Part shown: positions 14,401-38,900 of the stretch, in pieces | How the letters are laid out: each line of letters starts with the position of its first letter | Numbering within the stretch: the stretch's first letter is position 1 | NCBI GenBank assembly: GCA_973895155.1 | Contig: OZ316897.1 | Coordinates: forward strand, 20,277,224-20,341,223 | Direction of reading: 5' to 3' | DNA length: 64,000 nt | From: Marsupella aquatica | Taxonomy: Eukaryota; Plantae; Marchantiophyta | Position numbers and translations under genes: made by a program | Notes under the pieces: model-generated | Databases searched by the model: none | What the model was told of the DNA's origin: nothing | The model's input: only the letters and a program-made list of their open reading frames with translations

Positions 14401-17400
14401 GGTTTAGATTTACATCACGGGGGAGATCTAAATCCAAAGGGAAATTGCAAGAGAGGAAGTCTCTTGCATGTTGGAATTGTGGCAAGCCTAGCCACATGAA
14501 ATGGGATTGTCGAGTAAAGAACCCTACTGCATCAGCAAACGCGGCATCGAGCTCGCATGAGGTAGATTTACTCGATGATGATGACATATTGTGATGCCAA
14601 GGTTATGTTGTCAACGTAGTGTCAAATCCAGGTAGTGATGACTGGATTCTAGATAGTGCATGTACTTTTCACATTTGCTCTATGAGAGATTTTTTTAGTT
14701 CTTACACAGTTTCCAACGGGTCAATGTTGATGGGAAATGGAATCCCATGTCAAGTTGTTGAACTTGGATTTGTAAGATTTCAGATGTTTGATGGTGCTAT
14801 GAGAACGTTGAGGAATCTGAGATATATTCCCAACATGATGAAAAATTTCATTTCACTTGGAGTTTTAGAAACAAATGGCCATCAGTGGAGTTTTGCTAAT
14901 GGTGTCCTTCAGGTTTCAACTGGTACTAAAGTTGTATTGAAGGGAAAGAGACATAACAATCTATACGTTTTGGAGGGCACTGTAGTCTGTGATGAAGCCA
15001 ATGTAACCTGATCTCATGAGGAGACGGCCCGGCTATGGCACTTCTGTTTGGGCCACATGAGTGAAAAAGGTTTGGTTATTCTTTAGAAGAAAGGATTACT
15101 TTCTAATTTGCAATCTTGTAAGTTGGAATTTTGTGAGCACTGTGTGCTTGGGAAGCAGCACAAAAAGCCCTTTGGAGTTGGAACTCACACCAGCAAGAAG
15201 GTACTTGAGTATGTACATAGTGATGTGTGAGGTCCAGCCCCTACTCCCTCACATTTTGGACGGTTATACTATGTCACGTTCATAGATGATTACTCAAGGT
15301 AAGTGTGGATATACTTTCTACATGGTAAGTCTGATGTTTTTGCCACTTTTAAGGAGTGGAAAGCCCAAGTTGAGAATGAGAGTGGTAATAAGGTGAGATA
15401 TCTTTGATCGGATAATGGCGGTGAATACAGTTCCGAGGAATTTAGAACGTATTGTAAGGACTAGGGGACTACCCGCCATCTCACAACAAGTTATACTCCT
15501 CAGCAGAATGGTGTTTCTGAGAGACTCAACCGAACACTATTGGACTGCTTGAGGAGTATGTTGAGTCAATCATGCTTACCACATGAGTTTTGGGCTGAAG
15601 CTGTCAATATTGCAGCTTATTTGGTAAATTTTTCTCCATCCACTTCTATTGGATTCAAGACGCCATTTGAAATGAGGTACGGGCATCCAACAGATTACTC
15701 ACATCTAAGGATTTTTGGATGTGATACTTATGTACTTACACCTTCCCAGCTTTGATCCAAGCTGGAGTCCAAGTCAAAGAAGTGCATTTTCCTTGGCTAT
15801 CAGAAAGGTGTGAAGGGTTATAGGTTATGGGATCCAGTAACCTGTAAGCTAATTGTCAGTAGAGATATGTCTTTTAATGAGTCCAGATCATCAAAGGAGG
15901 GGGAGAGTTCTCAGGACTCCCATACTGACAAGGGAAATCTCCCATCCTGGACTGGGTTGAGGGGGAGATTAGTCATGATGTTGTTCATGATAGGAGAGAT
16001 GGAGAAGCTCCAGACTTGGAGCTGGTTCATGTGATGGAACAAGAGGAGAAGATTATTGCTGGGGTACCTCAAATTCAGCCAGCAACAGCAACAGATCAGC
16101 CTGGGTCATCTACTAGAAGAACTTCCAGTCGTTCTACTACAGCTCCTACCAGGTATGGTCAATGGGCAGACTCATCTAAGCTAGATGATATTGATATTGC
16201 ACCTGATGAAGATGATATGGCTTTGATCTTGGAAGAATGAGAGCTTTCTTCGTACAATGAGGTTTGTGCTTCAGAGCAAAAGCATGAGTGGAATGCAGCA
16301 ATGCAGAGGGAGTTGTAATCTTTGAGTGACAACAAGACATGAGAGCTGGTGGAGCTTCCAAGAGGTTAGCAAGTGGATTTACAAGTTGAAGGATAGTCCT
16401 TCAGAGGGTGGAGACAAGATCTACAAGGCAAGGCTTGTTGCCAAGGGATTCACTCAGGAGAAAGGAATGGATTACAATGAGGTCTTTTCACCGGTGGCTA
16501 AGTATTCCACAATTCGGATCTTGTGTTAGCTTGTTATGTTTTTTGGTTTGGTGATGGATCAAATGGATGTTGTTACTACTTTTCTTTATGGCAACTTAGA
16601 AGGGATCTTCATGAGACAGCCACTAGGCTTTATGAAGAAGGGCCAAAAGAATTTAGTTTGCAGATTGCTCAAGTCCTTGTATGGATTGAAGCAGTCTCCC
16701 AAACAGTGGAACAAGCAGTTTGATGATTTTATGCTTGCTCAAGGTTTTACAATGATGGTGTATGATCTTTGTGTGTATACAAAATCAGTCAAGAATGATG
16801 TATTTGGTTTCATCATTCTGGTGATCTATGTGGATAACATGCTGATTGTGGCTAAAGATCAATCTGAGGTTGACAGTCTCAAGGCGAAATTGAGTGCTAA
16901 ATTTAGGATGAAGGATCTTGGTAAGGCCAAGAGGATCTTAGGGATGGAGATTTTTAGGAACTCTGATACTGGACAGTTATGCTTGAGTCAAGGCCAGTAT
17001 GCGAGGAAAGTACTTGCACAATTCAACATGGAAAACTATAAGCCAGTGAGTTTTCCTTTAGCTTTACATTTCAAGTTATCATCAGCTTTCTCTCCTATGG
17101 ATGCTATGGAAAAAGGTCTGATGGCTAAGATTCCTTATGAGAAGGCAGTAGGTAGTCTGATATATTTGATGACTTATACTAGGCCTGACTTGGCTCTAGC
17201 AATGGGCAAGGTTAGCAGATTCATGTCAAATCCAGGGAAGATACATTGGGAAGCTGTGAAATGGATTCTCAGGTATCTGAAGGGAACACAGGACTATGGG
17301 TTACTATTTGATGCTAGATCAGATAAAACGTTAGTTGGCTATATAGATTCTGACTATGGAGGCTGTCTGGATACAAGGAGGTCTACAACTGAGTTTTATT

Positions 17401-18345
17401 TACTCTTAGAGGAGGATGTATCAGTTGGAAATCTACCTTGCAGAAGTGTATATCTCAGTCTACTATAGAAGCAGAGTATGTTGCAGCAGCAAAAGCAGCA
17501 AAGGAAGCAATTTTGTTAGACAAGTTGATCGCGGAGATGGGTTTAGAGCATGGCAAAATGACTCTAAACTGTGATAGTCAGAGTGCTCTTCACTTGGTTG
17601 CTAACCAGGTGATGGATAGCAGGGTGAAGCATATTGATATCAGGTACCATTTTATCAGGCAAACAGTATTTGATAAAACTTTTGAACTAGTCAAGATTGA
17701 TAGAAAGCTCAATCCCGCTGATGCCTTTACCAAAGTGATTCCTTTGGAGAGTTTCTCAAGACACCGTGTTACTTTGCAGGTTTTGTAGTTGTAGTGCAAG
17801 TAGAGTTATCTAGCAATATGTGACTATTTGTATATGGATTACTCATTCCTGTTTGGCTACAGCTTAGTTCTAGTTAACCCTTAGTTAACCCTTGTGGGTT
17901 TTTGGGGGAGACCTGGTTTGGTGATTGTCTAGAACTTCCCGCTGAGGATTCCATATGGTAACATTTAGTCCAGTCCCCAAGACAAGAGTCAAGGGGGAGT
18001 TTGTTAGATATTGCTCTAGTCTTGTGACTCATGAGCTAACCACAGTTAGTATAACTCGGGTTAGGACTTAGCTAATGTTAGCGCTAGTGCTGTTGTGTAT
18101 TAAGCCAGGGCTGATGCCAGACCCTGATGGAACTTAGGCTCATTGTTACGGAGCTAGTTGAGAGATAGGGAGAGCTTGTGTTGTGGATGCTTGGTATGGC
18201 CATTCGGCCTAGAGTGCAGTAAAGCTCTTGTGTGTTCCCGTGGACGTAGCCTCATGTGGAGGTGAACCACGTTTCTCTCTGTGTCGACTCTTGTGTGTTG
18301 GATGGTTCATGAGCTTGCCGTTGCAAATGTCGTTAGTGCTCAACA
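11478..18345 (+). mobile_element. Full-length but decayed Ty1/copia LTR retrotransposon
   Basis: 344-bp TG..CA LTRs at 11478-11821 and 18002-18345. TSD GAGTA on both sides. PBS tggtat(atat)cagagc after the 5' LTR and PPT aagggggag before the 3' LTR. Order gag-PR-INT-RT-RH. Confidence 0.97.
13732..17788 (+). pseudogene. copia gag-pol, disrupted by many stops and frameshifts
   Basis: KFEVEKYDG gag start, CWNCGKPSHMKWDC zinc knuckle, WILDSAC protease, FWAEAV and KGYRLWDP integrase, KARLVAKGF / LYGLKQ / YVDNML RT, KHIDIRYHF RNase H, split over about 10 ORF fragments. Confidence 0.95.
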
Positions 18346-19485: not shown

Positions 19486-20008
19486 GTCTCGTAAATTGGA
19501 CTGCCTCTATGTCGACATCTGTAAATTTTTCTTCCCTCCCTTTCCTATTTTCTTTCTTCAACCTTGATTAATTTGAATTTCTTGAGTCCCTGCTTTTCTG
19601 TTTTTCCTCCTTGCCAACCCTGTGAGTGGGAGAGGGCCTGTGCGGTTGGCGAGGGATTGTGTAGGACTGGGGAGTTGGGTGCAAGGAGAATAGAAGGCGG
19701 GATAGAAGGGAGAAAGGTGTGTAGGGTGTCTGGGGTTGGCCAGGCACATGGTCACTCAAGGGCAGAGGTGTGGGCAGTCAAATGCTGGCATGGTCTGCAC
19801 ATTGTGGAGAAGCTGGGAGAGGAAGGAGCAGGGACTAAGGGCAGGCAGGGAATTCAAGAGGGAAAACTGTGGTAGTAAAAAATAATTGAGAGGCAGATTC
19901 AATGGTAATGACAGGCTGGAGAGAGAGTCACAAGGGGTCCAAGATAAATAACCACCCATCAACCTATTCATTAAAAGTGTATTTTCTTTTGTTCACAAAT
20001 GAGTCTTG

Positions 20009-20097
20009 AAATGTACACTTTCATGGCCCCAAATGTACACTTCAAGACACCCAAATGTACACTTTTGTGTCTCTAAATGTACACTTTATAGGCCAAA
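20009..20097 (+). repeat. Left subterminal AAATGTACACTT motif cluster
   Basis: Four copies just inside the left TIR. Confidence 0.85.
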
Positions 20098-20339
20098 TCA
20101 CATTAATATTATATTAATAAATAATACATATTATATTATTTAATAACTCACATAGAAATGGAGGATAAAAACTTATAAAGTTATTTCATCCCCATTTAAG
20201 GACCAGATATTCTGTGAACAAAATAACATCATTCCAAATAGATTATAAAATATCTTTATACAATTATCTGCAAATTTACATTGAATACGAACATATTTCT
20301 AGTACTATCCAAGGGGCTTAACACAAGTCAATTAAATAT

Positions 20340-21398
20340 CTAAACCAAGTGCTCCCTACAATGTGTATTTGAGCATGTGCCCCTGTCTCCTTTCCTATCT
20401 ACCCTATTGTCACGGTTGCAACTCCCTTTATTTTCAGGGAGTTGAAATCTGGTGGTGTTGTTCCTAATGGCTATAATCTCCCGCAAAAAGTGTCTGAGAT
20501 TTTCTCTATATGGACCTGAATAGTCCTTTCCTAAAAATGATTTAGCAAGTGAGTTGACAAGTGCATTGTCAAGTTCCACCTCAGGACGTAAACTACATAT
20601 ACGGTGCTTTACATTCCAAGGGATCTCATTACTGTTGAGGTCCAACACACTATGTGTAAACTGTGACTTCCAAATTTTTGCTGCAAATCTCTTGCTAAGT
20701 TGATCATAAGTAATCTCATTTTTTGCCTTGTCTCTCTTCATGTGCAAAAGAGACCACTTTGGAGAGTTGAGAAGAAGATAACATCGAATGTCACTTGCAT
20801 GTGATAGTTTCTCAAGACATGGCCAAAGAATTGCTAGAAGAAAATTATCTCCACGATTGGCATGCATGTAGGGCACTGGAAATAATCCGGTCATGTCTGG
20901 GTTGGCAAATGCCTTAAGGGGGGAGTCATCCACAAGGAGGGTGTTGGTTTCATCATATAGATTTCCAAATGCATTCCATACCACCTGAAAATCCTTTAGT
21001 AGCACATTTGCCTTTCCGTTTGTAATGTCACGCCTTTGAATGCCTGTGTCAAAGGCTTCCACCTGTGTGAATACAAACTTAAGTTTCAACCGCTCCTCAA
21101 CAGTGAACATCATGTTCAGCATTTTCACTGTTCGTTCTACCCCAGCACAAGTCCAAATTGCAACGTCAAATCTGTCAAAAACCAACTTTAGAAACTCATG
21201 GAGCCCTGGTTGTTCTGTATACATGCGACTAATACCATTTTTTCTATCCCAATGCACTCCACTTGAGGTGACAATATTCCTGGATGTGCCCTTGCTTTGG
21301 AATTCAATAGAATCCCAAAGTATTTTATTAAGGTCCAAAATCAGCAACTTCCGCTTGACGGGACCAGGTCTCGATTCTGCAAGTGCACCAAACACCAT
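20340..21398 (-). CDS. FCP1/NIF-family HAD phosphatase-like protein (transposon cargo)
   Basis: KRKLLILDLNKIL (HAD motif I variant), PGLHEFL..FDVAIWT, KDFQVVW and YDETNTLLVDDSPLKAFANP. Open frame; the true start or an upstream exon is uncertain. Confidence 0.8.
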   Translation of the reverse strand: MVFGALAESRPGPVKRKLLILDLNKILWDSIEFQSKGTSRNIVTSSGVHWDRKNGISRMYTEQPGLHEFLKLVFDRFDVAIWTCAGVERTVKMLNMMFTVEERLKLKFVFTQVEAFDTGIQRRDITNGKANVLLKDFQVVWNAFGNLYDETNTLLVDDSPLKAFANPDMTGLFPVPYMHANRGDNFLLAILWPCLEKLSHASDIRCYLLLNSPKWSLLHMKRDKAKNEITYDQLSKRFAAKIWKSQFTHSVLDLNSNEIPWNVKHRICSLRPEVELDNALVNSLAKSFLGKDYSGPYRENLRHFLREIIAIRNNTTRFQLPENKGSCNRDNRVDRKGDRGTCSNTHCREHLV

Positions 21399-21615
21399 TC
21401 TCAGAGAAAAGACCAAAAGTGAACTTTGGATTAGGATTGTCTCAGTCCAAAAATACAACACAATGGCTGACAAAAACGAAAATTAACCTACATACCGTTT
21501 TTAGAAGCCTCACAATGTGTAGACGGATATGGAAACTTTAATTGGTGAGCCCATTCTGTGAGACCGAGAAGTATTTTAGATTGATATGAATAAATAGAAA
21601 GTCAAAGGCTGAATT

Positions 21616-22023
21616 TCATTCCGAAATAAGAGATCCGTATTCATCAATAATCATGTCAACACCAAGCTCCTGTTGGATTTCAAAATTGACATCTGAAGTA
21701 CTTTGTTCTACCCAATAAGGAGAAGTCCAAACAGGAGTTATGAACCCCAATTCTCCCCTCTTATACTCCTCCTTATTGAGAATTGAAGGAGCAGCTTCCA
21801 ATGATATTTCTTGGCCTCGATTTGGCCCACTTTTCCACACGTAACATCGTGCGTCGCGTTCCAATGACCTCCATCCAGTTGATCCAACTCTATTCCCTTT
21901 ATTTTTTGAGAACGGAAGGACAACAGGACTCCTCGAGTGTGAACGAACGAACACCAATTTGTCATCAGAAGCTGAAAAGAGTGTGTCAGGACAAGTTGAA
22001 GCACCTGCTGTAATGCTGTACAT
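21616..22023 (-). CDS. Possible exon or small ORF of unknown function inside the transposon
   Basis: 135-aa open frame preceded by a plausible short intron (donor near 22089, ctaac branch site and cag acceptors near 22006-22017). No recognisable domain. Confidence 0.3.
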   Translation of the reverse strand: MYSITAGASTCPDTLFSASDDKLVFVRSHSRSPVVLPFSKNKGNRVGSTGWRSLERDARCYVWKSGPNRGQEISLEAAPSILNKEEYKRGELGFITPVWTSPYWVEQSTSDVNFEIQQELGVDMIIDEYGSLISE

Positions 22024-22489
22024 TAGTTAGAAATGATGGAAATTTTATAAATTTTAAACTTTTTCTAACTCAAGGTACAATCTAGTTACCTTTTGTAGCA
22101 ATTTAGATCAACTGAACACTTAACCTAATGTTATGCTTCATCGGAGGCTATTGTATTGGACAAGGATCGCCAATATAAATCCTTGCTCTTTACATGCTAC
22201 CAAGAAAGAAGGCTGGACATCATTGGAGAAGCAATGCAGACTAGAAGATTCAAGAACTGGCCTCCAAAACACTTCTTCAACAAGAATGAGCTCTGTATAC
22301 AATTATCACAATCAGCCGATCTATGCTATTTTAGTTAAATAGCTATCATGGTCAGAAAAGTCTCATACTTTTTCAGGAGGTAGTAGTTGCGTAGTAGAAT
22401 CATCCCTGCAAATTTCATCTCAAACCGACATGTGGTTTGAAAGTTAGAATTAATTTAGTTTTGCTGTTTTTCGCATAGCCGCGACTTCG

Positions 22490-23170
22490 CCGACGCTTTG
22501 TGAAGCGTCCCTTGTATTCTTTGGACGCTTTGAAAAGCGTCCACCCAAAGACCACGACGCTTTCTGAAGCGTCCACCACCCAACCAGTTGTACTCCGACG
22601 CTCTGCAATCCACATGAGGAGCGACGCCCACAGAAGCGTCTGCTACCCCGAAGGCGACATCGACACTGCGACGCCCACAGAAACGTCTGCTACCTCGAAG
22701 GTGACCTCGACACTGTGACGCCCACTGAAGCGTCCCGCCCGGAGCCCAGAAAATGGATGCTGCGACCAAAACCTTAAAATTCAGCCGACGCTTTCTGAAG
22801 CGTCCACAAAAGTCCTTTGTAGTTTTGGACGCTTTCTGAAGCGTCCACAAAAGTCCTTTGTAGTTTTGGACGCTTTCTGAAGCGTCCACTATGTTCTCGA
22901 CACTTAGAAAAATTTTCAGTTTTCGCATTTTTATAACACCGCGCCACTTTTACCGATTTATTTGAGACACTTAGAGATCTCAGAAAAGTCTGAAACTTTA
23001 CCAGCATAGAGACTATATGTAGTAGAGTATCCTAGAAAAGTTTCAACTCATTCCGACTCTTAGTTTAGAAGTCAAAATTAGATTAAAATCATTATTTATT
23101 AGTTTTACCGCAAACACTGACGCTTTGCAAAGCGTCCGCTCAAACCTCGACGCTTTGAGAAGCGTCCCCT
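22490..23170. repeat. Cluster of GACGCTT-N4-AAGCGTC palindromes, including 41-bp tandem units
   Basis: Copies near 22492, 22524, 22556, 22787, 22828, 22869, 23119 and 23149. Confidence 0.85.
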
Positions 23171-26100
23171 GCATTTTCGACACTTTCAGCAGTATCCATT
23201 CACTTTTCAAGGATGACCGTCATTAAATTTATTCAAGACCCTTTAGATATGAAAGGGCAATCCATGTCCTTTCAGTATCTCAGTCTCCTTGGGTTCCTGC
23301 TAGCCTATATGAAGTAGAATTTGTGTCATTTTCAAGTGTGAAGAAATAAAGTAGTGCCTGTGGCATGTGCTGCAGTACTGTAATCACCTTTGCAAAGCTT
23401 CCGTGTATTTTCGTATGGTATGGAGCTTGCAAATACAAAGGAATTCTTCTCCCTTCCTTGGTCTGAATGATTGAGAGTTTAGATCATTGAAGTAAAATTA
23501 CTTGTATAAAGTTGAATCTCAGAAGTATGAGGGAATAGATTCCTTAAGTGGTGACAACCCATCTTCTTGAGTTCTTAATGCATAGTTTTTGGCGTGACAT
23601 TGCTTGTGCATGGGATGCAAAGATTGTTACTCACCAATTACCTGTGACTTCAATTTGATCATGATGGTGTTTATTATTCGTGACTCAGAGTACCGACTGG
23701 ATATCGAAGTGATTGATTACTAGTTTCTTCTGAGTACCTTTGGAAGGAAAGGTTGAGACGTGTTGACGGCATTTTAGTAATCATCCTAGTACAGTAATCC
23801 ATTCCAAAAATGTTCTTACGGATATACCACCCAAATCACATCAAATGAAGTATTGATGAGAAGTTACCTTGGTGTTTTCCAGACTCCCTTATCATACCTC
23901 AAGATTTCATTGTGTTTTGTTATTTGTTTCCATTTTATTAATTGCATTTACAATGTTAAGCAAACATTCAAATCTATGCCTTGCTGAGCAATCATAGTAA
24001 AAGGCTCAAACCTGTGTTTTTGTTACCTTAGTCATTCATAAATGTTAAATGATAGAAAATCATTTCTTTCTTGTTCTTCCATGGGATCGAATACCGAGTT
24101 TTGGACATTAAATGCTGATTTATGTCTTTAGTACAATACTACACCTGCCTGGTTGTCAGCAGCCGTTGATGCATTTCCTTCTGGATTGATGGGAATGTCA
24201 GGCAATCCGTCGGCTTCCCCACGAGTCAATTTGTTAGTTTCAGCTTCATTTGAATCTCCAAGCCTCGTTGCGCCTTCGTTGATCAGATTGGTTGAAGAAA
24301 GATGATCAAACATATCAACCCTTGCTCCTTCCAGTTGCTCCATCTGTCCTCCCGGCGTTGTTGGATTGGGATCATCCTTGTCCAAGTTATCATCAACTTG
24401 AACTTCATTGGGCCCCGGAGGGATGTCATCTAAACCAGATGAACGGTTTGGTGCAAGTCCAATATCATCATCTACATCGTAAGGCTCACCTTGACCAACA
24501 CGGTCATCCAAATTCTTGACATATGCCTCCTCTGATGCCTCTACGCCTTTAGCCACTTTGTCAGCAACATCATCAGACTCAGAACCGTCGGATTCAACAG
24601 CGACAGCTACAGCCGCAATAGTGGTAGCCCATTGTCGAGAATTTTCAGCAAGTGATTCACAATGGGCTTTAAGTGAGGGAACTCTCTCGCAAAGGTAGGA
24701 AGCAAAAGCTTCCACAAAATGCCTCTCGGACTGAGAGTCACAATAAACAAAGCATTCCCTATCGCAAAAAAATGATGTCTTCATGACTTGGCCACCGGAG
24801 AAAAAATCTAGAACCAAATCTCCCGGTTCTGATAAGGATTCAATAATCCTTCGGATCATCCGCGTGGGTTTGGCATGAGGATTAACCCATCCTCCGCGAC
24901 TACCAACTGTCTCAAATCGAGGGGCCATATTCATAATCTTGACGGCCTCTTCCGGGTCCAAAACCACTTTTAGGTTGTCGTTTTGTGTCCCCTCATCTGA
25001 TTCCTTAGCTTTCCCCTTTCCCTTGTCGATCTTGCATACTTCATAATCAACATCCTTTGAAGTATACAAGAATTTTGGCTTTGGATAGTTGGGCTTGAAA
25101 ACTTCATTCCAATTGACGTCTTCATCTCGAGAAATCCCTGCAAAGATAACTTCTTCAATCCCTCCACCCCAACATGAGTCATGAGGGTGCGGTTGATCAT
25201 CTCGGGAATAACTCCCATACTCAATGTGAATGGTCAAAGCTTTCTCTTGTCCCAATTTACGAAGGGCACCATGGACATTCAGTGCAAGTTGTCCAGGATG
25301 AACTGTTATCGTCACCACAATCGTGGGATTTTGTGGAAGCTCCACAATGTATTCAAAGAGAACAAGAATCTTTGCTTCAGTCCACTGTTTTTGCGGAAGC
25401 CGGCTAAAATCAACAATGGCAAGAGGGCAGGTCGGAGGAGCTTCTTGCAATGACTCTGGATCAATGGTCTTCATGAGATTGTCGCTAAAAAATGTAACCC
25501 ATGGTAGGGTCCGAGAACGTGATCCTCCGCCAAATCTCTGGCAGTATATATCATCTAGGCGGAATACCAATGTCGTCGGCAAGATTGCGCTCTCCCGCGT
25601 ATGATTTGGCTTTAAAAGGTTGGCAAGATAGACCTCGCCAGCGGCTCTTCGACACCTGCTGAACTCTGAATCAATTGCTAGCGTAGGAAGAACCTCAACT
25701 ACTTTCCCCCAATTAGTATTTGTCGGGAAATTCACCGCATCCTTGGTGCAATAGTAGTCTTCAATAAGGGACTTGAGTTTCCGCACGATCTTCACATCTT
25801 TGGCCAACTCCTCTATAGATGGCATGTCTGATTTATTAGAGGCATCTTTCTTTAGCAATACCTTTCCTGACTTCACCCGCGTCAGTATTCTTGTGATGTC
25901 TCGTTGTGAGATCAACTCACCATCAAAACAACGAAACATGGCAACAGTAATTGCTTTTTCAGACTTCTCATTTCCTTCTACACCAGCTCCATCGGGAAGT
26001 TTCCCATCCAACCACAATTGGCATACCAAACTCCATAAATCAAAAAGAGCATTGTCGACAAACAGTAACCAGTAGACATTACGACAATCTTTCCTTCCCA

Positions 26101-26192
26101 TGGTCATTCTTGCAAGAGCCAACCAATCCTACAATTGCAAAGGAAAGTCTGTTAGTTCTCCATAACTCAATTGTTTGAAAGCACTCAGGTGC

Positions 26193-26535
26193 GGACTGAG
26201 ACCATCCCAGTCCAACACAGAACTAGACAGTATCAGTGGAAATATTATATTGAATGTGCATGATTTAGTTTGGACTAGGACCATCCCAATCCAAAACAAA
26301 ACTAGACGGTATCAGTGGAGAAATATTCTACTGAATGTGCATGAATCCATTTGGACTGGGACCATCCCAGTCCAACACAAAACTAGACAATATCAGTGGA
26401 AATAGTCTATTGAATGTGCATGAATCCATTTGGACTGGGACCATCCCAGTCCAACACAAAACTAGACGATATCAGTGGAAATATTCTACTGAATGTGAAT
26501 GTATCCATTTGGACTCGGACCATCTCAATCCAAAG
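26193..26535. repeat. Five 79-81-bp tandem units, each containing the palindrome GGACTGGGA-CCA-TCCCAGTCC (intron 2 of the ParB-MTase gene)
   Basis: Palindrome starts at 26193, 26272, 26353, 26432 and 26511. Confidence 0.9.
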
Positions 26536-28414
26536 CAAACTTGAAGCTTTGTGGTCAAAGACTACCATCTCAATTGTAATCACACATGGAGAGTCTACGG
26601 TATTGTACCAATCAAGCAGTAACACTTCGTACCTAAATTTTTTGATTGTCTTGAGCGTTTGTTTTGTTGTCCCCATGTTTTGGCCGGCTAGGTTTTCCAC
26701 ATTCCACAAATTGCCGCCTAGCATGAACGACTGTATCTTTGAAGCATGACTGAAACACCATCGTGCTATTGATAGCATTAGATCGCATTGAATGCTCAAC
26801 TAATATTGACGATGGTGTTCGATGAGATAATATTCTTGACTTTCGAAATTCCAGCTTTTTTGCCAATGCTGTTAGCTTGGCATCCTTGTTTGCCCATTCT
26901 CGAATCCATCTGGCTGCTCTGGCCGAATGTTGACCGCTAATGGCAAGGAATTGAACCTCCCCCTTTTTCACGGCTGCTACAAAGTCCCTCCTATCTGATT
27001 CCGTGTTGTCATATTGCATTAGGTTTCTATGTTTTGTAGTGTAAGGAATCAAGTCTGCTATGTGTGGTTCATGCCCCGGATTTCTTATCATGGAATTGGC
27101 CACCTCCTTTACATGGTCTGCATTCAACATTCTGTAACAGAGTCTTGCCGACGCAGGGAAAATACTCTCTACGGGAATAGAAAATATCGAATTGATCCCA
27201 AACGTATAATATTGCTCCATTTGTTGCAGTACCTCATTACCTTCTAAGACCTTCTTCTCCTCAGGAGCGTCCAACTGCTCGTCCATATCTTGTGAATGCA
27301 CTGTCAGGTTTTCTGTAGTGTCATCCATGATGGCACTGTCAATTTTCTATTTCTTCTTTTGTCTTGGCCTCTTTTCACTTGCACTTGGCTTCTCAACCGG
27401 ACGTTTCTTCTCAACTGGCTTCTCAACTTGGCTTCTCGTACTCGGGTTCTCAACTGGCTTCTGAACTCGGCTTCTCGTACTCGGCTTCTCGTACTCGGCT
27501 TCTCGTACTCGGCTTCTCAACCGGCTTCTCAACTGGAAGTTTCTTTTCAACCGGAGGTTTCCTTTGGCTTTGTTTTTGTTTTCCCACTGCTCTTTGAGAG
27601 GTTGCTGCTGTAGTTCCCGCGGTCTCTGTTGTAGGTTCTGGAGCTTTCTCTGGCGCCTTCTCGGGCACAGGGTTTGTATTCACCGTTGGAAGGTTTCTCG
27701 TCTTTGACAAAGATTCTATCCATTGCTTTGCTTTGACTAAATCAAAGTTGGGATCAAATGCAACATCCTTATCAATTAAAACACCAGGCTCCTCTGACTC
27801 CAACGATAACAATCCAACTTTCTCAAGTAAATTGCTTAACGTCCAAGTAGTTTCAAAAGAGAAATTGCCTTGGTGCTTCATCATGTTGAGTTTCAAATAT
27901 TGAAACCCATACATAATGTCGACTGGAAGCATACCAGTTACCCCGATGACCAACTTCTTTGTGTCATATGTCTTTGGAAAAAATCCCATTGACAAAACGC
28001 TCAATTCACCACTTGCGTGCCATTCGACATTGAATTCTGAGGAGTATGCCTTTGACATAAGGTTAACTTTAACCCAGCATGACCTATCGTGCATCTCCAG
28101 AATGACTGAATTCATCCCTCTCCCTCCAATGCCAACAGAGACCACAGGTCCGCAAACCAAAGTCAGGCTATCATTTGCTCTGCACTTTAAGGTCAAAACA
28201 GGTTCAATCATGCTTGATGGCACTTCATTATTAAGCGGGGTTCTTGAGAACTCAAGCCCCCATCGGAAGCCTGGGGATCTCTCATCTAGTAAGAATCCGT
28301 CCCGGCAGTCGGTCGGTGCAATCGCGGGTTTGAAACCAACAAGATCGCTCCCTGCATCATAAAAACGCCATCCATGTTAGACTTATTAAGTTTAAAACAT
28401 TTGAATAACTCTTG

Positions 28415-28755
28415 TTGGATTAGGATGGTCCTAGTCCAACTTGAGATGGTTTTAGACTTGCTCCTACAATCGAGATTCAATCTCCTGGATGGATTAGGAT
28501 CATCCGAGTCCAAGTTTGGATTGGGATCATCCGAGTCCACGTTTGAATTAGGATCATCTGAGTCCAAGTTCGGATTGGGATCATCCGAGTCCAACTTTGG
28601 ACTGGGATCATCCGAGTCCAACTTTGGATTGGGATCATCCGAGTCCATGTTTGGATTAGGATCATCTGAGTCCAAGTTTGGATTGGGATGGTCCGAGTCC
28701 AAGTTTGGATTGGGATCATCCGAGTCCAACTTTGGACTCGGATGGTCCCAGTCCT
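28415..28755. repeat. 27-bp tandem array of the same palindrome (intron 1 of the ParB-MTase gene)
   Basis: About 10 units of ggattgggatcatccgagtccaa(g/c)ttt at 28491-28755, plus a degenerate copy near 28417. Confidence 0.92.
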
Positions 28756-29984
28756 CTAAGACTTAGGGAGGATAGGTGATGGATACTTACTAGGGATTCT
28801 TGATTGAAATTGTCTGGAGTCTTCAAGTGCCAGTTCTACACTGTCGCTCATAGAGGAGAGGTCAAACTCCTCTGTTGCTTCCACGGAGGACTTCACAAGG
28901 ACGCGATTCGCTTCCATCTTTCTGACACGTGGCAGAGTGACACGTGGCTTCTTAGCAGGCGTCCGATTTAGGGCAATGAAAAAGAATGGAGGTGGAGGCG
29001 GAAGCAGGCGGAGGCGGGGAGGCGGAGAGAGAGCGGAGAGCAAAGAGCGAGGAGAGCGAGCGAGTGGAGGCAAAGAGCAGAGAGCGGAGGCGGAGAGTGG
29101 AGAGCATGAGCAGAGTGAGGAGCGAAAGAGTGAGAATGAGAATGAGGTCCTGGCTGGACCTCTCCGTCCCTTTACCCCCTCCTGCCTCACCCCGGCCTGC
29201 GTACGGCCGGTTGCCTCCTTCTCCTACGTACGGCCTGATAGTGCGTACGGCCTGCTCCTGCGTACGGCCCGTTGCCCGCACCCTGCATACGGGCCTCCTT
29301 CCTTGATGTCCTGCCTACCTAACAGCCTTGCACGGTAGTCCCCGCGCAATTATGCTCGTGAAGATAAGGTGTGCCGCAAGCTAAGGTGAAGGGGTACTCA
29401 ACCCTTATCTTCACGCGATTTTTGTTTGAGCCGACTCGAGCAAAGGGTATATTTCGGGAGACACCCACTTCGGAGCTCATTCTTGTTCTAGTTTCCCAAA
29501 TCTAAGCTCCATGTAATCCGGAGTTTCTCTTAACTTTAGTGTTATATATTGAGCCACTTACCTTCAATGGGTCAGCTTAGCCAGCTTCTTGACTTTTGGG
29601 GTCCTCTCAGTTTATCTTTTACAGACATGTGTGGTTTAGGGTTCAATTTGTTTTTTACTCCCAAGATTTAGTGGCATATAGCTTGTATTTCAGGGTTCTG
29701 GGAAAGTTTTTACCAATCTACAGACAACAATGTATCCCCCTTGGATGTGATATTCATATTCTACCAGATCTTAATACTAAGGTGAGTATAAGGTTAATGC
29801 ATTCAAATATAAGGCTAGGTTTCATTATTTCATGAAACTGTATGTAGACATTAGGGTCTACCTTAAGACCACGCAAACTTTAGGCTACACCATATAGGGA
29901 GATCCGTAAAATACGGAGTCTTCCTAAATTTGGAATTTTCTTAGCTTAAAATGTTTGAAGTTTATCTCCCGTTACATTATGGGT

Positions 29985-30780
29985 TGGTCTAGGATGGTCC
30001 TAGTCCAAGTTTGGATTCGGATGTGGACTAGGATCATCCGAGTCCAACTTTGGATTGGGATCATCCGAGTCCAACTTTGGATTGGGATCATCCGAGTCCA
30101 ACTTTGCATTGGGATCATCCGAGTCCAACTTTGGATTGGGATGGTCTGAGTCCAAGTTTAAACTTGGATGGTCCAAGTCCTAGTTTGGATTGGGATGGTC
30201 CGAGTCCAAGTTTGGACTTGGATGGTCCAAGTCCTAGTTTGGATTGGGATGGTCCGAGTCCAAGTTTGGATTAGGATGGTTCAAGTCCAACTTTGGATTG
30301 GGATGGTCCGAGTCCAAGTTTGGACTTGGATGGTCCAAGTCCTAGTTTGGATTGGGATGGTCCGAGTCCAACTTTGGATTGGGATGGTCCGAGTCCTAGT
30401 TTGGATTGGGATGGTCCTAGTCCAACTTTGGACTGGGATGGTCCCAGTCCAAATCCAGACTCGGATGGTCCCAGTCCAAATCCAGAATCGGAGGATCGTA
30501 CTCCAAATCCAGACTCGGAGGATTCCAGTCCAAATCCGGACTCAGATGGTCCCAGTCCAAATCCATAATCAGAGGATCGTAGTCCAAATCTAGACTCGGA
30601 GGATTGCAGTCCAAATCCGGACTTGGATGGTCCCGGTCAAAATCCGGACTCGGATGGTCCTAGTCCAAATCCAGAATCAGAGGATCGTAGTCCAAATCCG
30701 GACTTGGATGGTCCCGGTCCAAATCCGGAATTGAAGGATCGTAGTCCAAATCCAGACTTTCAGGATCGCAGTCTGAATCA
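29985..30780. repeat. 27-bp tandem array of the same palindrome (predicted 5' intron of the transposase gene)
   Basis: Roughly 28 units, changing from ggattgggatcatccgagtccaacttt to agactcggatggtcccagtccaaatcc along the array. Lies between donor gtgagt (29782) and acceptor tgcag (30825). Confidence 0.92.
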
Positions 30781-30840
30781 AAATTTGCATGACTTTGGTT
30801 TTAATCCATTTTTTTCAGTGTGCAGGATAATAGGAAAAGG

Positions 30841-33800
30841 ATGTCTCAAAGGTTTTCTAGGGGCGATGATGTGACCTTGACAATGGATGGTTACGACGTT
30901 GGAAATGGGACAGTTCAAAAGACAGATCCGCAAGAGAGTGTTCAAAATATTGTGCTTGGAGAGAATCGAATTGGGGTTCTCATTGAGAAGGCCTTTGGTG
31001 AGACCAGGAAGCTCCCTTTTCCAATGCCTAGGGCGGAAAATCTTCATGATGCCATTGACTCATGTGTCATTTGGGATATGTCATGTGCATATCGATCTGC
31101 AGATAAGATTACTCAAAAACGCATCAGTATTGGTAGTTGTTCGACTCGAAAAGATAACAACATCCATAATTCTGCAAATGTACAGGAGGATGCTTCGACC
31201 ACCCTAAGGCCAGGTGATGAGGTTGAAATGTTTATCTCTGGCCATTGTGTGGCCTTTGGAGTTGTTTTCAAGACTGATCCAATGGAGAGATGTCATAACA
31301 TATTACTCGGTGAGTCTCGGGTTAGTGTAAAAATCACAGATGTGATTCATGGTAGTAAGACTTTACCTTACGCACATGGTGGAGCTGCAACAATTGAAGA
31401 GGCAAAGGGCTCCTGGGTTCTATGGGATGTGGCTGACGTCCACAATAAAGTATGGAATGTTGATATCGATGGGAGCAACAAATCTTCCTCTAAGAAGCAG
31501 AAGGACAAGGCGGATTTTGTTTCACAGTCTTGTTCGGCAAACACCACAGACACTAAGTGTGACTATTTTCATCGGGCAAACTGGATGTCAGAGTTGGTTG
31601 AACTCTACACTGGTTTGGATCGAACCAAAATGGTTGCCACGGGAACGATCACTGTCCCTCAAGTGACGGCAGCAGTTGATGATGAAATTCTTGGTGATGA
31701 CCATGTTGGGATTGCTGTGAAAGATGTCGTGGCAGCACAATACTTTCCCAACATCCACAAGGGAGTAGTGAGTTTGATTCGATGGCGGATTGATTCAACA
31801 AAACTAGTTACAAATGGAAAATTTTTGTCAGACATTTTGGTGGAAGGTTCTGAAAGGATGGACTCAATGGATAGGGATGAACTCAATGCGGATGTAAGTG
31901 ATAGAGGAGTACTGCGTTCAAGGCCCTACAATTTTAACAAGAGGAATCAAGTAGATCCAAATGAAAAGAAGAGGAGGTTGTTGGAAACCAAGGCAATTTC
32001 AAAAACAACAGAGGCGTCAATTGATGACGTGAAAAGAGAAAATTGTTGCAAGCAAAAATGTTGTCTCATTATGCCAAGGGAAAACATCGAAGATATTAGG
32101 ATGGAATTTCATGGGATGTCAAGCGAGTCAAAAACGTCACACATTTTCAACCTCTTTCACTATAGAGAGGATGATGTTCGTGATAAGGGACACCATGTTC
32201 TTAAGGGTATGGTCGTATGCAGACATGCATTTGCAATTATCCACGGTTTTAGCCACACCAAATATTATGATTACAAAAGGAGATATGTGGAGGGTTGCAA
32301 AATTGGGTTCCATGGCAATACGGGCTTGATGAAAACAAGGGCAAATACCTTGCATGCACGAGCTCTGTTGGAGGTTTTTTTGACTCGAAATGCAGAGCCC
32401 ATGCCTCATATGCCTTATGGAGGGGCACATGGGACAGACTCTATTGAGTACCGTCTTCCGGCGTGTTACAAAAAGCTAGAGATTCTGGAAGATGTGAGAA
32501 CAAAGATGAAGGAAGAAGGGCTTCCTCCTGTCACAGAGATACTCTCTACAAGATCTGGAGTAACTCATTTGCAAACTTCAGTTTTCATAAAGATGGTGCA
32601 TTTGCCAAGTGTACTCTTTGTTGTGAATACAAAGACAGTTTGATGCGAGAAAGAAGGAAAAAAGAACGTGCTGAAATTGAAGAAAAACGAGCGCAACATC
32701 TTCGTGAGCAAATGTCACGTAGATATGTTTACTACGCTCATCGAGTGATGGCCAAACAACACCCAGGAGAATATCTTTGCATTATTCACGACAAGATGGA
32801 TCAAGCAAAGACATGGATTCCAAAAATGGTTAGTACTCCTAAATCTCTTTCGGGTCATGGAATGCCGCTACCTATTGCTCTCACAGGGATGTTGACCCAC
32901 GGGAGGGATCCAGGAGTTTATGCACACTTTAGTGTCACTGGCCTTTGGCCAGGAGATGCCGATTTCACGGTGACATCCTTGGCTAAGTGTCTTCGAGACC
33001 TTGAAGAGTACAATGGAGACAAGACAGGTGACATGTTGGATGGCCTTCATTGGGAACCTCACAGACCTTTCTTTCAAGCCCTACTTGACTTTGAAGCATT
33101 TTTGACGGGTTATTTGGAACCAAAGAATATACCGGTGAATAGGTATATTGGTTCTGAAGATGGAGCTGAGAGTCGGACTGAGACCGTCCCAAACCAGCAA
33201 GATGAGGATGATGGAGAAGACATGCAAGGAGAGCAAGGCAGTCCATCGTTCAAGCCCTTGCCAAGGCACCTAACATTGCAGATGGATAATTCAGCAAAGG
33301 ACAACAAAAACCAGACTGTCATGGCATTTTGTAGCGAGCTTGTGAGTAGAGGAGTATTTGAAACTGTTCAAATGTCTTTTCTAATGGTTGGTCATACGCA
33401 TGAAGATGTTGATGCACTCTTTTCAAAGGTATCATATCAAGTTCAGCACAAAGAAGTTGCAACCCTCCTTGCTCTTATGGCAGAGGTATGGGAATGCGAG
33501 AGCATTCATCCAGTTCCCAGATTGATACAAGAAGTTGCATCTTACAAAGAATATCTTCAAACTTTCAAGGTGAAAGATATTCAAGGTCACTCAAAACCTG
33601 TATCATTTCTTTTCTCTATGAGAGATAATGTACCAATATTTCAGTATAAGTCCCATGTAAAGCAAGCTTGGGCTCCAATTGGTGGAAGGTGCATTTGGGC
33701 AACAGATCTGACAACAAATTCTCTTCTTTTACCAAGTGGAGAGCCCTTAGCTAAATCCATTGGAGAGATACACAAAAAATCTGAAGAGATTATCCCATTT

Positions 33801-34601
33801 CTTAACAAGTACCTTGATTTTTTGAGAAGGAGTTGCACTGATGAGACATCTATAGCATATAAGGAAAGATTTCCTCTTGTGAAATATTGGGAGAGAATTG
33901 TGGAGTTGTTGACAAATGGGCTCGCACTAGAAGGGGAGGGAAGTACTCAATTTCCCTTGGAAAACAGATTTTGGCCTAAGACTAACCACGGCACTGGTTA
34001 CAAGGTCAACCAACCGGAACAAAGTGGTCCTCCAAGTGAAGATGAGGAGAATGCAGAGATGACGGCTCTTCAAAATGAGGTCTTGGAAGAGATGGAAGAT
34101 CAAGCAGCACCATTTGTTGGATCTCGAGTTGAGAGAGAACAAGGACGATGGATTCCTTTACAAGATATTTGTGAAGGAAACTTTGTATTTCTTCGACCCG
34201 AGGATGACTGGGAGAATAAAAATGGTGGAGGTCATTTCTGGTTGGTGAGAGCTTTGGGTTTGGTGGACCCAAAGCATGAAGTCCCAACTACATCTTCAAC
34301 AAACCCTTCTCTGCCTCGATAGTACGCTCCAATGTTCCCAGTTGAATGGTGGAGGCCTAAACACTCTAGTAAACTTGATGTGACTGAGAGTGCGCGGTAT
34401 CTAAATTGTTTCATGTCCACTAAGACATGGGAACGAGATCCAGGGTTTGGTGAGAATACTCAACATTGGCAGTATGCAAATTCTGCAATGTATGGTTTTA
34501 AATCTGGAATGAAAGAAGAAAATATGGCGGGCAGAGGTTTGAAGATCCCTCGAAATGTTCTACAAACTGTCCAAAATTATCTTCAAAGGATGGACAAGTA
34601 G
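30841..34601 (+). pseudogene. Transposase with three Tnp1/En-Spm-like N-terminal repeats, a Cys-rich region, a DDD-type (DUF7869/Sola-like) core and a C-terminal aromatic SH3/BAH-like module; disrupted
   Basis: Core motifs IIHDKMDQ, LQMDNSAKDNKN and FLMVGHTHEDVDALFS; also CCKQKC and FAKCTLC. ORFs 30820-32643 and 32463-34322 join by a 1-nt shift at cttcctcctgtcac (about 32528). An in-frame TAG at 34320-22 separates the last part. Confidence 0.85.
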
Positions 34602-34854
34602 ACTTAGTTGTTAGAAGCTATAATAATTAAATAGATAGTTTACTAGTTTTTATGTAACTAAGATAGTCACTCATTCAAACATAGTAATTTATGTACTAGT
34701 TATTTACTATTCTAATAGTTTTAATGTGATACTATCTCCTCATTTTCTAAACTTTTGATCATTATAAATATGAATGTTTGCTTTTTCTACATAATTAAAA
34801 ATGTTTTTCTATTCATTCCTTTCTTTTAAATGATTATAATAAGAGTTGGTAGGC

Positions 34855-35220
34855 AAATGTACACTTTTTAGGCCAAATGTACACTTTATTGCACTAAAAG
34901 TTACACTTTCTAGACCAAATGCACTTAAATGTACACTTGTTAAGCCAAATGTATGCATTTTGCACTCAAATGTACACTTGTTAAGCCAAATGTATGCATT
35001 TTGCACTCAAATGTACACTTTCTAGGCCAAATGTACTCAAATGTACACTTTTAAAGCCAAATGTATCTATTTTGATGTTCAAATTTACACTTTTCATTGC
35101 CCAAATGTACACTCTTTAGGCCAATTGTAAACTTTTCTATCCCCAAATGTACACTTTTCATTGGCCAAATGTACACTTTTCCAAGCCCAAAAGTACACTT
35201 TTCACTGCCCAAATGTACAT
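34855..35220 (+). repeat. Right subterminal (CC)AAATGTACACTT motif cluster
   Basis: More than a dozen exact or degenerate copies just inside the right TIR. Confidence 0.9.
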
Positions 35221-35958
35221 AAATCAAATAATAATACACTTTTAATGAATAGGCTGATACCCCCATACATGCAAGTTGGCAACCAACAACCCAAACAGAC
35301 TGCCTGGCCTCTTAAATGGCCCCTTGTGCCCCCTTTGCTCGAGGGAGAAAATTCCACCACACAACAACCAGCCCAAAACAGATTGTATGACCTCCTCATA
35401 AACAAAGGCTGTCTCCACCCTCCAATTTTTTAAAACATTAAACGAGGTGAAATCCCTTAAAAGAGGGGGAAAATGTTTACTTCTTTCTTTGTTGCATGCC
35501 TTAAGAATTAACTAAGAAAACACTCTCCTTGGCTCCTCCTAATCGTCCATCAGTGTCATACTCATTGTGTCTTACCTGGTACCTAGTGTAGGACTTGCAC
35601 TATCTTCCTGTCCCAGATGTAGATTTAGTCATACCAGATGTACCCAGGATATCAATTGCACTCCCTAGAAGTATTCTTACACACTAGCTCAATACCCGTG
35701 CGTTGGACAAAGATACCGTGAAACAAAGATGTCGTGTTGCCCAAGATGTCGTTAAGGAAAAAGATGTCATTAAGAGCAGAGATGTTGTGTTGCCCAAAAA
35801 ATGATGCAAACCTTTATTATATGAGTTAATGTTGTCAAATGTGGTTGTCCCTTTATATATGTATCCCTAAACCCTATCACACCAGCCAAGATTAGTTTGA
35901 CCCCCAACCCCTTCAGTTGTTATCTCATCCAGATATATATTTAATTTTTCCAAGTATA

Positions 35959-38900
35959 TGTGAGAATATGAATGAGAATGAGTCATGTATAGTCCGTGGC
36001 GGTTGGTACATATAATGGTGCCGGTCCGGTGACTGGCTGATCCGGTCGTCCGGTCACCAGATAGAGTTTAACACTCCCTTTTGGATATATAGTGACAACT
36101 ATATAGACAATATAAACTATACCTATTATATCATGTTCATAGGGAATACATGATATAAGTACAGGCGAGGTAGACTGCCTCGTTAAAAAACCTTTATCAA
36201 CTCTAGCTTAGTAAAAACTCTACCAGTGTAGCAGAGAAAAAATATGAGTGCTAAAGGAAAAAGAGTGTAGCCTAACAGTCCTCGTTGTTATAAATGTCAA
36301 TATTAAATAAAGTTAGATGCTATAGTAAATCTAGTTTTAACATCTGTCTTATCAGTGGGTTGTCGGCATTGTGTCATCAGCAGCATCAATCGTCATGTGG
36401 AGTAGCAGCTTCCACGGTCATCATGCGTTGCATGCTCCGTAGTCCAATCGCCTGGCAGTATCGGTGATGAACTGATGGTGATAGTGATTTGGTGAAGAGA
36501 TCCGCACAGTTGTCTGCACTTGAAATCTGCAGAATGTTGATCTCTTTTCCATGTAACTCGTGGGTGTAGAAAAACTTCGGAGCTATATGCTTCACGTGGT
36601 CGCCTTTGATGAATCCTTTCGTGATCTATTGTATACATGCTGCGTTATCCTCAAAAATGTTAGTAGGCTTCGTTAGTGGTGGTAGGCCGCATTTGGTGTT
36701 GATGTGATTTATAAAGGATCGTAACCAAACGGCTTCACGACTAGCCTCATGTAGAGCTAAAATCTCTGAGTGATTCGATGAGGTTGCTGTTAGGGTCAGT
36801 TTCACGCTTTTCCAAGAAAAAGCGATACCCCCTATGGTAAAGACATATCCAGTCTGAGATTTTGCGGTATCAGTGTCGGAGAGATATCCGGCGTCCGCAT
36901 ATCCTATGAGCTCGTGGTTTGCACCGAATGGGTAAAATAGCCCGGTATCGGTGGTTCCACGTAGATATCTAAATACGTGCTTAACTCCATTCCAGTGTCT
37001 GGCTATGGGAGTTGCACTATGTCTGGCTAGTAAGTTAACGGCAAATGCAATGTCTGGCCTGGTTTGATTTGCTAGGTACATTAATGCTCCTATTGCAGAA
37101 AGATACGGGGTTTCTGGTCCTAGTAGTGGTTCATGTTCTTCGCACTTGCAAAAAACATCAGTGTTGTTTTCTAATGAACGTACAACCATTGGTGACGTCA
37201 ATGGGTGTGCTAGGTTCATATTGAACTGTTTTAGGATCTTTTCAGTTTGTGTTGTCTGATGGAGCATCATGCCAGTGGGTAGGATCTCTAGTTGTAATCC
37301 TAAGCAAAAGTTTGTATGTCCAAGGTCTTTCATCTCAAATGTTGATTTAAGACTAGTAATAGTATCTTCTGTAATTTGGGGTGTCCCAAATATATTTAAG
37401 TCATCAACATAAATAGAAATGATGACATATTCATCATCCACATGTTTAATAAATAAACATGGTGTACTGGCATCATGGGAAAAACCCATGGCAATCATTT
37501 CATCAGTAAATCTTTGATACCATACTCTGCCACTTTGTTTCAGGCCATACAATGCCTTCAACACGCGGATAGCTGGTCCACGGCGAGTATTCCGTACGGT
37601 TGACACAACGGTGTCGTTATTATGAGTTACATGTGTAGATGACACATGAGGTGTAACTTGAGATAATTGTGTTATAATCTTATGTAAGTATGAGATATGC
37701 GATTTAGCGCCTTGAGCTAAGCCTCGGCGTCGTTGCTCCAACTCGGGAGGTGATTGCATGTATAGACAAGTGTCTAATGTTCCATATAGATATGCAGTTG
37801 CAACATCCAATTGTCGCATCTGTAATTGATGGAAAATGGCAAATCCGATAAGGTATCTGAATGTTGTGCTATCCATAACCGGTGAATAGGTTTCATCGTA
37901 ATGAATTCCCGGTTGTTGTGTAAATCCTTTCCCTACCAGACGTGCTTTGTAGCGTACAACTTGGCCTTTATCATTTCTTTCGCGGACGAATGTCCACTTG
38001 TAGCCAATGAGATGATTGTACGTCTTGCAGTGTTGGCTCGACTGGGCCAAAAGTGTGTCTGCTTAGTAGGGAATCTAATTCTCCGTTTATAGCTTTTTGC
38101 CATTCAGGCCAATCTGGTCTGTTTTGACATTCTAAGATAGATATTGGTTTGGGTGTCTCGTTAGTGATATGTGTTGCCACCATTAATGCAAAAGCATCAT
38201 CTATTGAAGTAGTATTTCTATCCCACATCGTACCGGTGTGTGCGTAGTGGATAGAGATCTCTTCATGAGTTGTGGATTCGGTATGATCGACATCAGGTGA
38301 AGGTGGTAGAGATGAACCACGCCTTCTTGGTTGTTTATCCTTTGATCCCAAGGGTCTGCCACGTTTGGTACGAGGCTGGGATGTATTTGCTGGCTCACTT
38401 GATAATTCGATGCGAGCAGATGCTCTCGCAGCTGGAATATGTGAGCGGGTAATTTGTGATGTATCGACAAAAGCGTTTGGAAGTTCTTCCACAATCTTGT
38501 GGAGTTGCAAAATTCACTGAACTTCTTTCTCCCCTTGATTGGTTCCAAGGTCTTGCCAAAATGGCGAATGTCTTTCCCACTCCAAAGGTGGTTGTGGTTG
38601 TGGGGTTATTAATGGTGGATAAACATGTTCATCAAAATGGCAATCTAGGAATCTGGATTTAAAAACGTCGCCAGTTGTTGGCTCCATATATCAGATTATG
38701 GACGGAGAGTCAATTCCGATGTATATCCCCAACTATCATTGGGGTCCCATCTTGGTTCGTTTGGGTGGAGTAATGGGGACCATTACTTGACATCCAAATG
38801 AACGAAGATGTGATAGGTCAGGTTTGATACCATTAGCAATTTGGTATGGGCTATAGGTATTAAAAGCCGATGGGCGGTATTGAATTAATGCATTAGCCTG

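Follow-up and report, generated by a model that had tools for sequence, protein, structure and literature searches.

A liverwort transposon protein with predicted ParB-like and methyltransferase folds, an altered catalytic motif and candidate palindromic target sites

In this work we analysed a gene carried by a DNA transposon in a 64,000-nucleotide stretch of the liverwort Marsupella aquatica (assembly GCA_973895155.1, contig OZ316897.1, positions 20,277,224 to 20,341,223; hereafter the window). A reading made from the letters alone, without database searches (hereafter the sequence-only reading), had proposed that a spliced gene here joins a ParB-like part to a prokaryote-type amino-methyltransferase-like part. 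We find that the ParB-like part precedes a beta-class methyltransferase part whose catalytic motif IV is altered throughout the family, that the gene shares its element with a DUF7869 transposase gene and an FCP1/NIF-like phosphatase gene, and that a 25-bp palindrome is confined to the element; the two folds are predicted from the model of a homolog. The explanation that we favour, at a probability of about one half, is that the gene encodes an accessory transposon protein combining a ParB-type fold with a methyltransferase fold devoid of the PPY motif, which would bind the palindromes of its own element and keep that element transcribed. Coordinates of all features are collected in Table 1.

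The beta-class methyltransferase fold proposed earlier is supported by sequence and by structure. Pfam N6_N4_Mtase matched the 666-residue frame at 26128-24131 with 28.4 bits against a cut-off of 26.7, covering only 29 residues; the best PDB sequence matches of this frame were M.RsrI, M.MboIIA, CcrM and M.PvuII (E 0.005-0.8), and profile-profile comparison with 12 phage beta-class enzymes gave a probability of 96%, in a local alignment limited to motifs X-I-II. The whole fold was recovered from homolog P0155, a single reading frame of 1009 residues carried by a contig of 4.5 kb, with 27% and 36% identity to the two frames in the window. Its AlphaFold model, built with 94 sequences (mean predicted local distance difference test score, pLDDT, 76; 501 residues at 90 or above), was searched against 48,161 PDB chains, and rows 1-20 of the result were all permuted amino-methyltransferases, aligned over model residues of about 463-740 (CcrM, Z 17.6, root-mean-square deviation 3.4, 220 residues aligned; PvuII, Z 15.9; N4CMT, Z 15.3). 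The homolog model thereby displays the permuted Rossmann fold with motif order III-IV-...-X-I-II.

The catalytic motif, by contrast, is missing. The string LAIVDFSR, earlier named as the best candidate for motif IV, is present (DFSR at 25411-25400, minus strand), and in a global profile alignment with 12 phage beta-class enzymes it falls on the DLIITDPPY strand, with DFSR on DPPY. The caveat that no DPPY or SPPY could be seen proves to hold for the family and not for the window copy alone, as [DNSH]PP[YFW] is absent: 0/53 family strings contain PP, and F, Y or W occupies the fourth place in 1/53. The strings instead follow the pattern D-[F/L]-x-[R/H], with DFSR in 11, DLTH in 9, DFGR and DLAR in 5 each, and others. 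Among homologs about 15-55% identical, and in counts that include a few near-duplicate proteins, the motif IV Asp is kept in 52/56, the motif X Lys in 63/64, the motif I Asp in 59/65 and its two Gly in 61/65 and 60/65, D-F-F-S-G-G being conserved at about 90%. In motif I the Gly loop lacks one residue. At motif II the expected column is not acidic, and Asp stands in the next one in 25/62. Judged by these columns, the active site has lost its base-stacking half and kept part of its cofactor half. Because motif IV is altered family-wide, the protein is probably a pseudo-methyltransferase and not a source of N4-methylcytosine (4mC) or N6-methyladenine (6mA), and we consider DNA methylation by any member of the family unlikely. 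In the bdelloid enzyme N4CMT, changing SPPY to APPA abolishes activity, according to the accessible part of the report (PMC8885841). The sequence-only reading had left open an amino-methyltransferase or a derived DNA-binding module; the family-wide change makes the former less likely and the latter more so. The methylase-fold part (24640-25546, minus strand) also matches three unnamed ESM Atlas clusters at scores of 0.94-0.96; these clusters, which have 81-109 members and no recorded taxa, may represent a wider related family.

Directly below the methyltransferases in the P0155 fold search, seven consecutive rows (21-27) come from the ParB superfamily, namely PadC, KorB, SerK, pNOB8 ParB, SbnI, sulfiredoxin and Atu1540, with modest Z-scores of 7.2-5.5 over residues 53-214; SerK, SbnI and Atu1540 we take to share the ParB fold. 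The ParB domain and the first part of the helical region align jointly to KorB and pNOB8 ParB (model residues 77-372 and 62-378). Among viral models, the best match was a 494-residue phage ParB/Sulfiredoxin protein (712 columns, E 7.8e-9) that, judged from the lengths, would span both domains. The fusion would have been in doubt had neither a Rossmann methyltransferase fold nor a ParB/sulfiredoxin fold appeared; the structure search found both, in one homolog model. The DGQHR label given to the ParB-like part did not stand, as the family motif reads ISG[QA]HS and the NCBIfam matches of 13 members include no DGQHR family. Canonical ParB CTPase clamps have a GxxR arginine patch and a catalytic EN; I-S-G-[Q/A]-H-S is not that patch, and of the EN pair the family shows a conserved Asn but no evident Glu. 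By sequence, the ParB part had nothing significant in PDB, Pfam, NCBIfam or PHROGs, and when its profile was set against that of one phage ParB domain, the probability was 0.3%.

The candidate target sites are palindromes of two 11-bp arms around 3 bp. At five mismatches or fewer there are 43 matches, 43/43 inside the element, compared with 0-2 in each of 20 shuffled windows. Since this pattern had itself been derived from the arrays, we added two checks that are less circular. When six sites were compared, drawn from the 27-bp arrays, the 79-bp array and singletons located ahead of the FCP1-like gene, within intron 1 and within the coding linker, their cores agreed at 86% and their flanks at 30%. 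In the second check, 11-3-11 dyads of any sequence with at least 9 complementary pairs occur at 1.83 per kb inside the element versus 0.27 outside. The subterminal repeats carry a motif other than the palindrome, and two DNA-binding specificities are therefore implied.

How might such a protein act? In the reading that we favour, a dimer would read the two-fold symmetric palindromes through the helical region linked to the ParB domain, and loading at the arrays, which lie in introns and between two promoters, would let the protein cover the element or spread along it. The methyltransferase fold would be kept as a scaffold for DNA contact, dimerisation or holding a cofactor; METTL14 is an example of a methyltransferase fold retained as a scaffold. 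The outcome would be anti-silencing or transactivation, by analogy with VANC on the Mutator-like VANDAL elements. The gene probably arose from a phage-type ParB-methylase fusion in which the catalytic half took on a new role.

Several observations weigh against this proposal. The fold assignments were made on a homolog whose identity to the window protein is 27-36%, and the window protein folded alone gave a pLDDT of 36; the ParB Z-scores are all below 8, and sequence profiles of the ParB part gave just a weak DndB match (E 0.0048, 2/13 members, below cut-off). The arrays from which the palindrome pattern was derived consist of tandem copies, which do not count as independent sites; over these arrays CpG depletion leaves no clear protected zone or footprint, and the repeated N-terminal domains of the transposase could bind the palindromes instead. 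The results are as compatible with repression as with activation. Finally, the strong conservation of the cofactor pocket also fits a live enzyme.

This last point bears on the possibility that the protein is an active, non-canonical amino-methyltransferase, which would load on the palindromes through ParB and write 4mC or 6mA, either marking the element as self or blocking silencing by 5-methylcytosine. We hold this to be unlikely, even though the whole fold and motif order are retained and the motif IV Asp, motif X Lys and motif I are nearly invariant. Some phage enzymes do have DILY or DLPY instead of DPPY, but these variants retain the Tyr that the land-plant family lacks, and here the motif II acid is unconserved and the Gly loop shortened. 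From the accessible parts of two reports, phage thymine dioxygenases are activated by ParB (PMC13229309) and the red-algal protein PAG2 is called a putative N6-adenine methylase (bioRxiv 2025.02.11.637652), both of which speak for an active enzyme. On a comparably tentative footing is a variant in which a phage-derived ParB/parS-type clamp would load at the element's palindromes, spread on land-plant chromatin and prevent silencing. It would do so either by an N-methyl DNA mark written with a non-canonical D-F-x-R active site or by drawing in the RNA polymerase II elongation machinery by way of its C-terminal peptide, in concert with the element's FCP1-like phosphatase. If true, this would be a transposon anti-silencing system made of bacterial partition and restriction-modification parts.

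A structural role in transposition, in which the protein, bound at internal sites, would hold the 13-kb element in a bridged or compacted form that lets the transposase bring the two ends together, seems to us less probable again. TnpA of maize En/Spm is the model for such a cofactor, and the EnSpm-like anatomy and the spread of palindromes along the element agree with it, as does the bridging and condensing of DNA by ParB proteins described in titles and abstracts of the literature; yet the palindromes concentrate at promoters and introns rather than at the ends, where another repeat is found. Still less do we expect an autorepressor, which would limit transposase expression through operators between the divergent promoters. 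KorB and DndB offer analogues, KorB is among the fold matches and the largest palindrome array sits between the two promoters, but palindromes also occur within introns, and the conserved FCP1-like gene and C-terminal domain suggest contact with the transcription machinery, in either direction. That the gene is a captured passenger with no present role is very improbable. In favour of this reading, the window copy is damaged at four places and many homologs in the databases are fragments. Against it, the stop at 26635 appears nowhere in the depth that other copies contribute to four sequencing runs, an empty site exists for another of the lesions, a long terminal repeat (LTR) insert, and particular residues have been conserved between liverworts and a fern.

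The structure of the gene could be established in part. The strings ISGQH (26941-26927) and NPHAKP...DLVLDFFSGG (motifs X-I; 24883-24791) are where the sequence-only reading placed them, on the minus strand, and the introns described there as canonical, intron 1 at 28790-28352 and intron 2 at 26632-26131, both have GT..AG ends. Joining of the exons is borne out for intron 2, where homologs P0158, P0026 and P0002 (P0158 and P0002 being gene predictions) pass from the last residue on the ParB side to the first helical residue with a two-residue gap; exon 1, intron 1 and the N-terminal 300 residues found no match among 161 homologs and are putative. Longer homologs were sought among 6588 candidates and none was found. 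The three lesions reported earlier are present (a frameshift in the interval 27682-27452, with stop codons at 27349 and 26635). Of the span 24128..28917 given to the gene, the motifs and lesions stand and the end at 24128 does not, as the last exon resumes at 22008-21616 beyond an insert of 2135 bp. A third intron at 22009-24143 was considered and rejected: the insert has TG..CA ends, is flanked by a 5-bp duplication (CCTGC at 22004-22008 and 24144-24148), and contigs in sequencing runs X1 and X3 run from 22008 directly into the sequence past 24148. On these grounds it is a solo-LTR-like insert and a fourth lesion. The insert is itself high-copy in the sequencing runs and contains internal tandem repeats of 41-47 bp.

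All five of the first homologs overrun the end of the window frame. The C-terminal domain that lies beyond the insert is matched by 25/168 proteins, and for 8 the match extends to the methyltransferase region as well. It has no Pfam family, and the fold search barely covered it. A profile of this domain (21619-21918, minus strand) gave a weak PDB match, compatible with chance, to the AFF4 peptide of P-TEFb complexes (E 0.093), presumably the peptide that binds cyclin T1; the next gene after the domain is that for the FCP1-like phosphatase of the polymerase C-terminal domain.

That the gene is carried on a plant transposon, as the sequence-only reading held, is supported. The element measures 15.3 kb with the nested insert and about 13.2 kb without it, and it matches EnSpm/CACTA-like elements in its 27-bp terminal inverted repeats, 22-bp subterminal repeats and CC flanks (a tentative target duplication). 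Its termini read CATCA/TATCA, to be set against the CACTA/CCC terminus of that group; the DUF7869 transposase belongs, we assume, to the CMC/EnSpm group. In run X1, read depth steps at the left end of the element: the unique left flank consists of one contig of depth 11.3, and internal contigs, about 99% identical, have depths of 364-455, a ratio that suggests roughly 30-40 young copies, as a rough figure; X1 may derive from the sample behind the window. The window copy of the transposase has a frameshift near 32538 and a stop at 34322. Because the extra base near 32538 is present in only part of the read depth, and the stop at 26635 is missing from the four runs, less damaged family members exist. 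The transposase gene is divergent from the ParB–methylase-fold gene, and the FCP1/NIF-like gene lies downstream of the latter on the same strand. Three Riccia gene models fuse a NIF domain to a methyltransferase-like region (NIF confirmed in the two scanned), and the order of these two genes is thus conserved. The FCP1-like domain reads DLNKI in place of DxDxT, the motif that we would expect in such a phosphatase, and by that substitution it may be a pseudo-enzyme too. At the N-terminus of the transposase (30850-31452, plus strand) there are at least two repeats of about 75 residues, 38% identical, with no Pfam match, which in our view resemble TnpA-type domains. An Rfam scan of the element gave no match.

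Table 1. Features of the transposon and of the ParB–methylase-fold gene (window coordinates)
Feature	Position	Strand	Remarks
Whole DNA transposon bounded by terminal inverted repeats	19957..35259		CC on both sides (possible 2-bp target duplication)
Left terminal inverted repeat, 27 bp	19957..19983	+	25/27 identical to right one
Left subterminal 22-bp repeats	20009..20087		AAATGTACAC core
FCP1/NIF-like HAD phosphatase gene	20340..21398	-	Pfam NIF, E 5.9e-14
Single palindrome	21426..21450		just upstream of FCP1-like gene
Last-exon remainder, C-terminal domain	21616..22008	-	conserved, about 100 residues; no known family
Solo-LTR-like insert	22009..24143		TG..CA ends; private lesion
Acidic linker	24144..24680	-	poorly conserved; predicted disordered in homolog
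Single palindrome within coding linker	24361..24385		
Beta-class (permuted) amino-methyltransferase fold	24680..25540	-	Pfam, profile alignments, homolog model
Helical region	25531..26130	-	homolog model
5 palindromes in intron 2	26191..26533		79-bp period, same core
Exon 2	26633..28351	-	unassigned N-terminal region, Lys/Pro/Glu-rich repeats with frameshift, then ParB-like domain
ParB/sulfiredoxin-like domain	26636..27247	-	ISGQHS motif at 26941-26924
11 palindromes in intron 1	28415..28756		
Putative exon 1	28791..28917	-	ATG at 28917; without homolog support
Array of 24 25-bp palindromes	29984..30722		27-bp period; between two divergent genes
DUF7869 transposase	30841..34601	+	N-terminal repeated domains; E 5e-44
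Right subterminal 22-bp repeats	34850..35219		AAATGTACAC core as on left
Right terminal inverted repeat	35233..35259	-	

The closest parallel that we found is the red-algal Plavaka group, and what follows on this and the other published systems refers to the accessible parts of the works cited. Plavaka elements are likewise giant EnSpm-type (EnSpm/CACTA) transposons with an accessory PF01555 methylase domain and an accessory ParB domain, and in Bostrychia tandem inverted-repeat arrays beside the PAG3 ParB gene were proposed as ParB sites (bioRxiv 2025.02.11.637652). ParB plus PF01555 cargo having already been reported on red-algal EnSpm transposons, its presence here is less surprising. In Plavaka, however, these domains are divided between two genes, PF01555 with SET in PAG2 and ParB with a 2-oxoglutarate oxygenase in PAG3, whereas the land-plant element joins ParB and the methylase fold in one protein, and it further differs in its altered motif IV, its third, FCP1-like gene, its DUF7869 transposase and its land-plant hosts. 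A Pfam scan of the element found DUF7869, NIF and N6_N4_Mtase only, with no SET, oxygenase or Plavaka match. A likeness to phage ParB-methylase fusions had also been suggested, and the phage protein that heads the viral structural matches bears it out. In the fusions of phage ParB-terminase loci the ParB domain is likewise N-terminal to an N6_N4_Mtase domain (PMC4738411; FP_Epona AUV56449), but FP_Epona keeps DPPY, and the plant protein is spliced, with a longer helical insert and a eukaryote-specific tail. The same work also reports Dam enzymes fused to ParB-helix-turn-helix parts, from chlorophytes and chytrids, as well as DIRS1 elements with methylase domains that are inactive (PMC4738411).

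Like Marchantia MpDN4MT1 and bdelloid N4CMT, the protein is predicted to have a beta-class fold of prokaryotic origin in a eukaryote. Those two are active host genes, MpDN4MT1 with TSPPY (bioRxiv 2021.02.12.428880) and N4CMT requiring SPPY (PMC8885841), whereas the present gene is transposon cargo without the motif; ParB has no occurrence in the accessible text of either paper. VANC (PMC5735166) resembles our protein as an element-encoded accessory protein with targets in tandem repeats; its activity is proven where that of the land-plant protein is predicted, and a fold relationship is not expected. A further lead comes from a language model, without an alignment: the ParB-like part (26636-27247, minus strand) scores 0.94-0.96 against fungal clusters in which 31% and 98% of members carry DUF3723, a conserved Starship cargo family (bioRxiv 2021.12.13.472469). 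DUF3723 may itself adopt the ParB fold; Starships, unlike the land-plant element, use tyrosine recombinases.

A profile search returned 239 proteins at E <=0.001, the best 150 of which were listed. The 29 distinct proteins that were looked up include 11 from Riccia sorocarpa, 1 from Calypogeia fissa and 1 from Ceratopteris richardii, and other searches added three Calypogeia proteins. The one fern record belongs to a distant member whose motif I is degenerate; even so far apart, specific residues are shared. In a scan of 185,579 prokaryotic genomes, 76 pattern matches yielded no confirmed direct sequence relative, and 173 metagenome matches reduced to one locus of 1.8 kb without context. We found no account of a land-plant ParB–methylase-fold family in the literature, although the Bostrychia supplements may list land-plant homologs.

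What is new here is the occurrence in land plants, the direct fusion of ParB and methylase fold, the family-wide loss of motif IV, the FCP1-like partner gene and a defined candidate operator. According to the accessible part of the Bostrychia preprint, VANC is the sole proven anti-silencing system by which a transposon targets itself, and ParB-plus-effector cargo with inverted-repeat arrays was proposed, and left untested, in red algae (bioRxiv 2025.02.11.637652). The same design appears in liverworts and probably ferns, with a candidate protein and a candidate 25-bp site together in dozens of near-identical copies. If the protein does bind and protect its element, ParB-based self-recognition would be a transposon strategy that crosses kingdoms, and it might serve as a tool for changing plant chromatin at chosen sites. 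The family is also a caution that PF01555 matches in bryophyte genomes need not signal 4mC or 6mA activity.

Outside the element, the window holds two similar alpha/beta-hydrolase-NB-ARC-LRR gene copies (2840-9038 and 45276-51129, minus strand), 92-95% identical in parts, and glycoside hydrolase family 15 gene fragments in several frames on both strands (56253-61874). The hydrolase-NB-ARC-LRR genes, like the named homologs, agree with a liverwort host. Two degraded copia-type retrotransposons with RVT_2 matches lie at 14232-17788 (plus strand) and 36626-41084 (minus strand).

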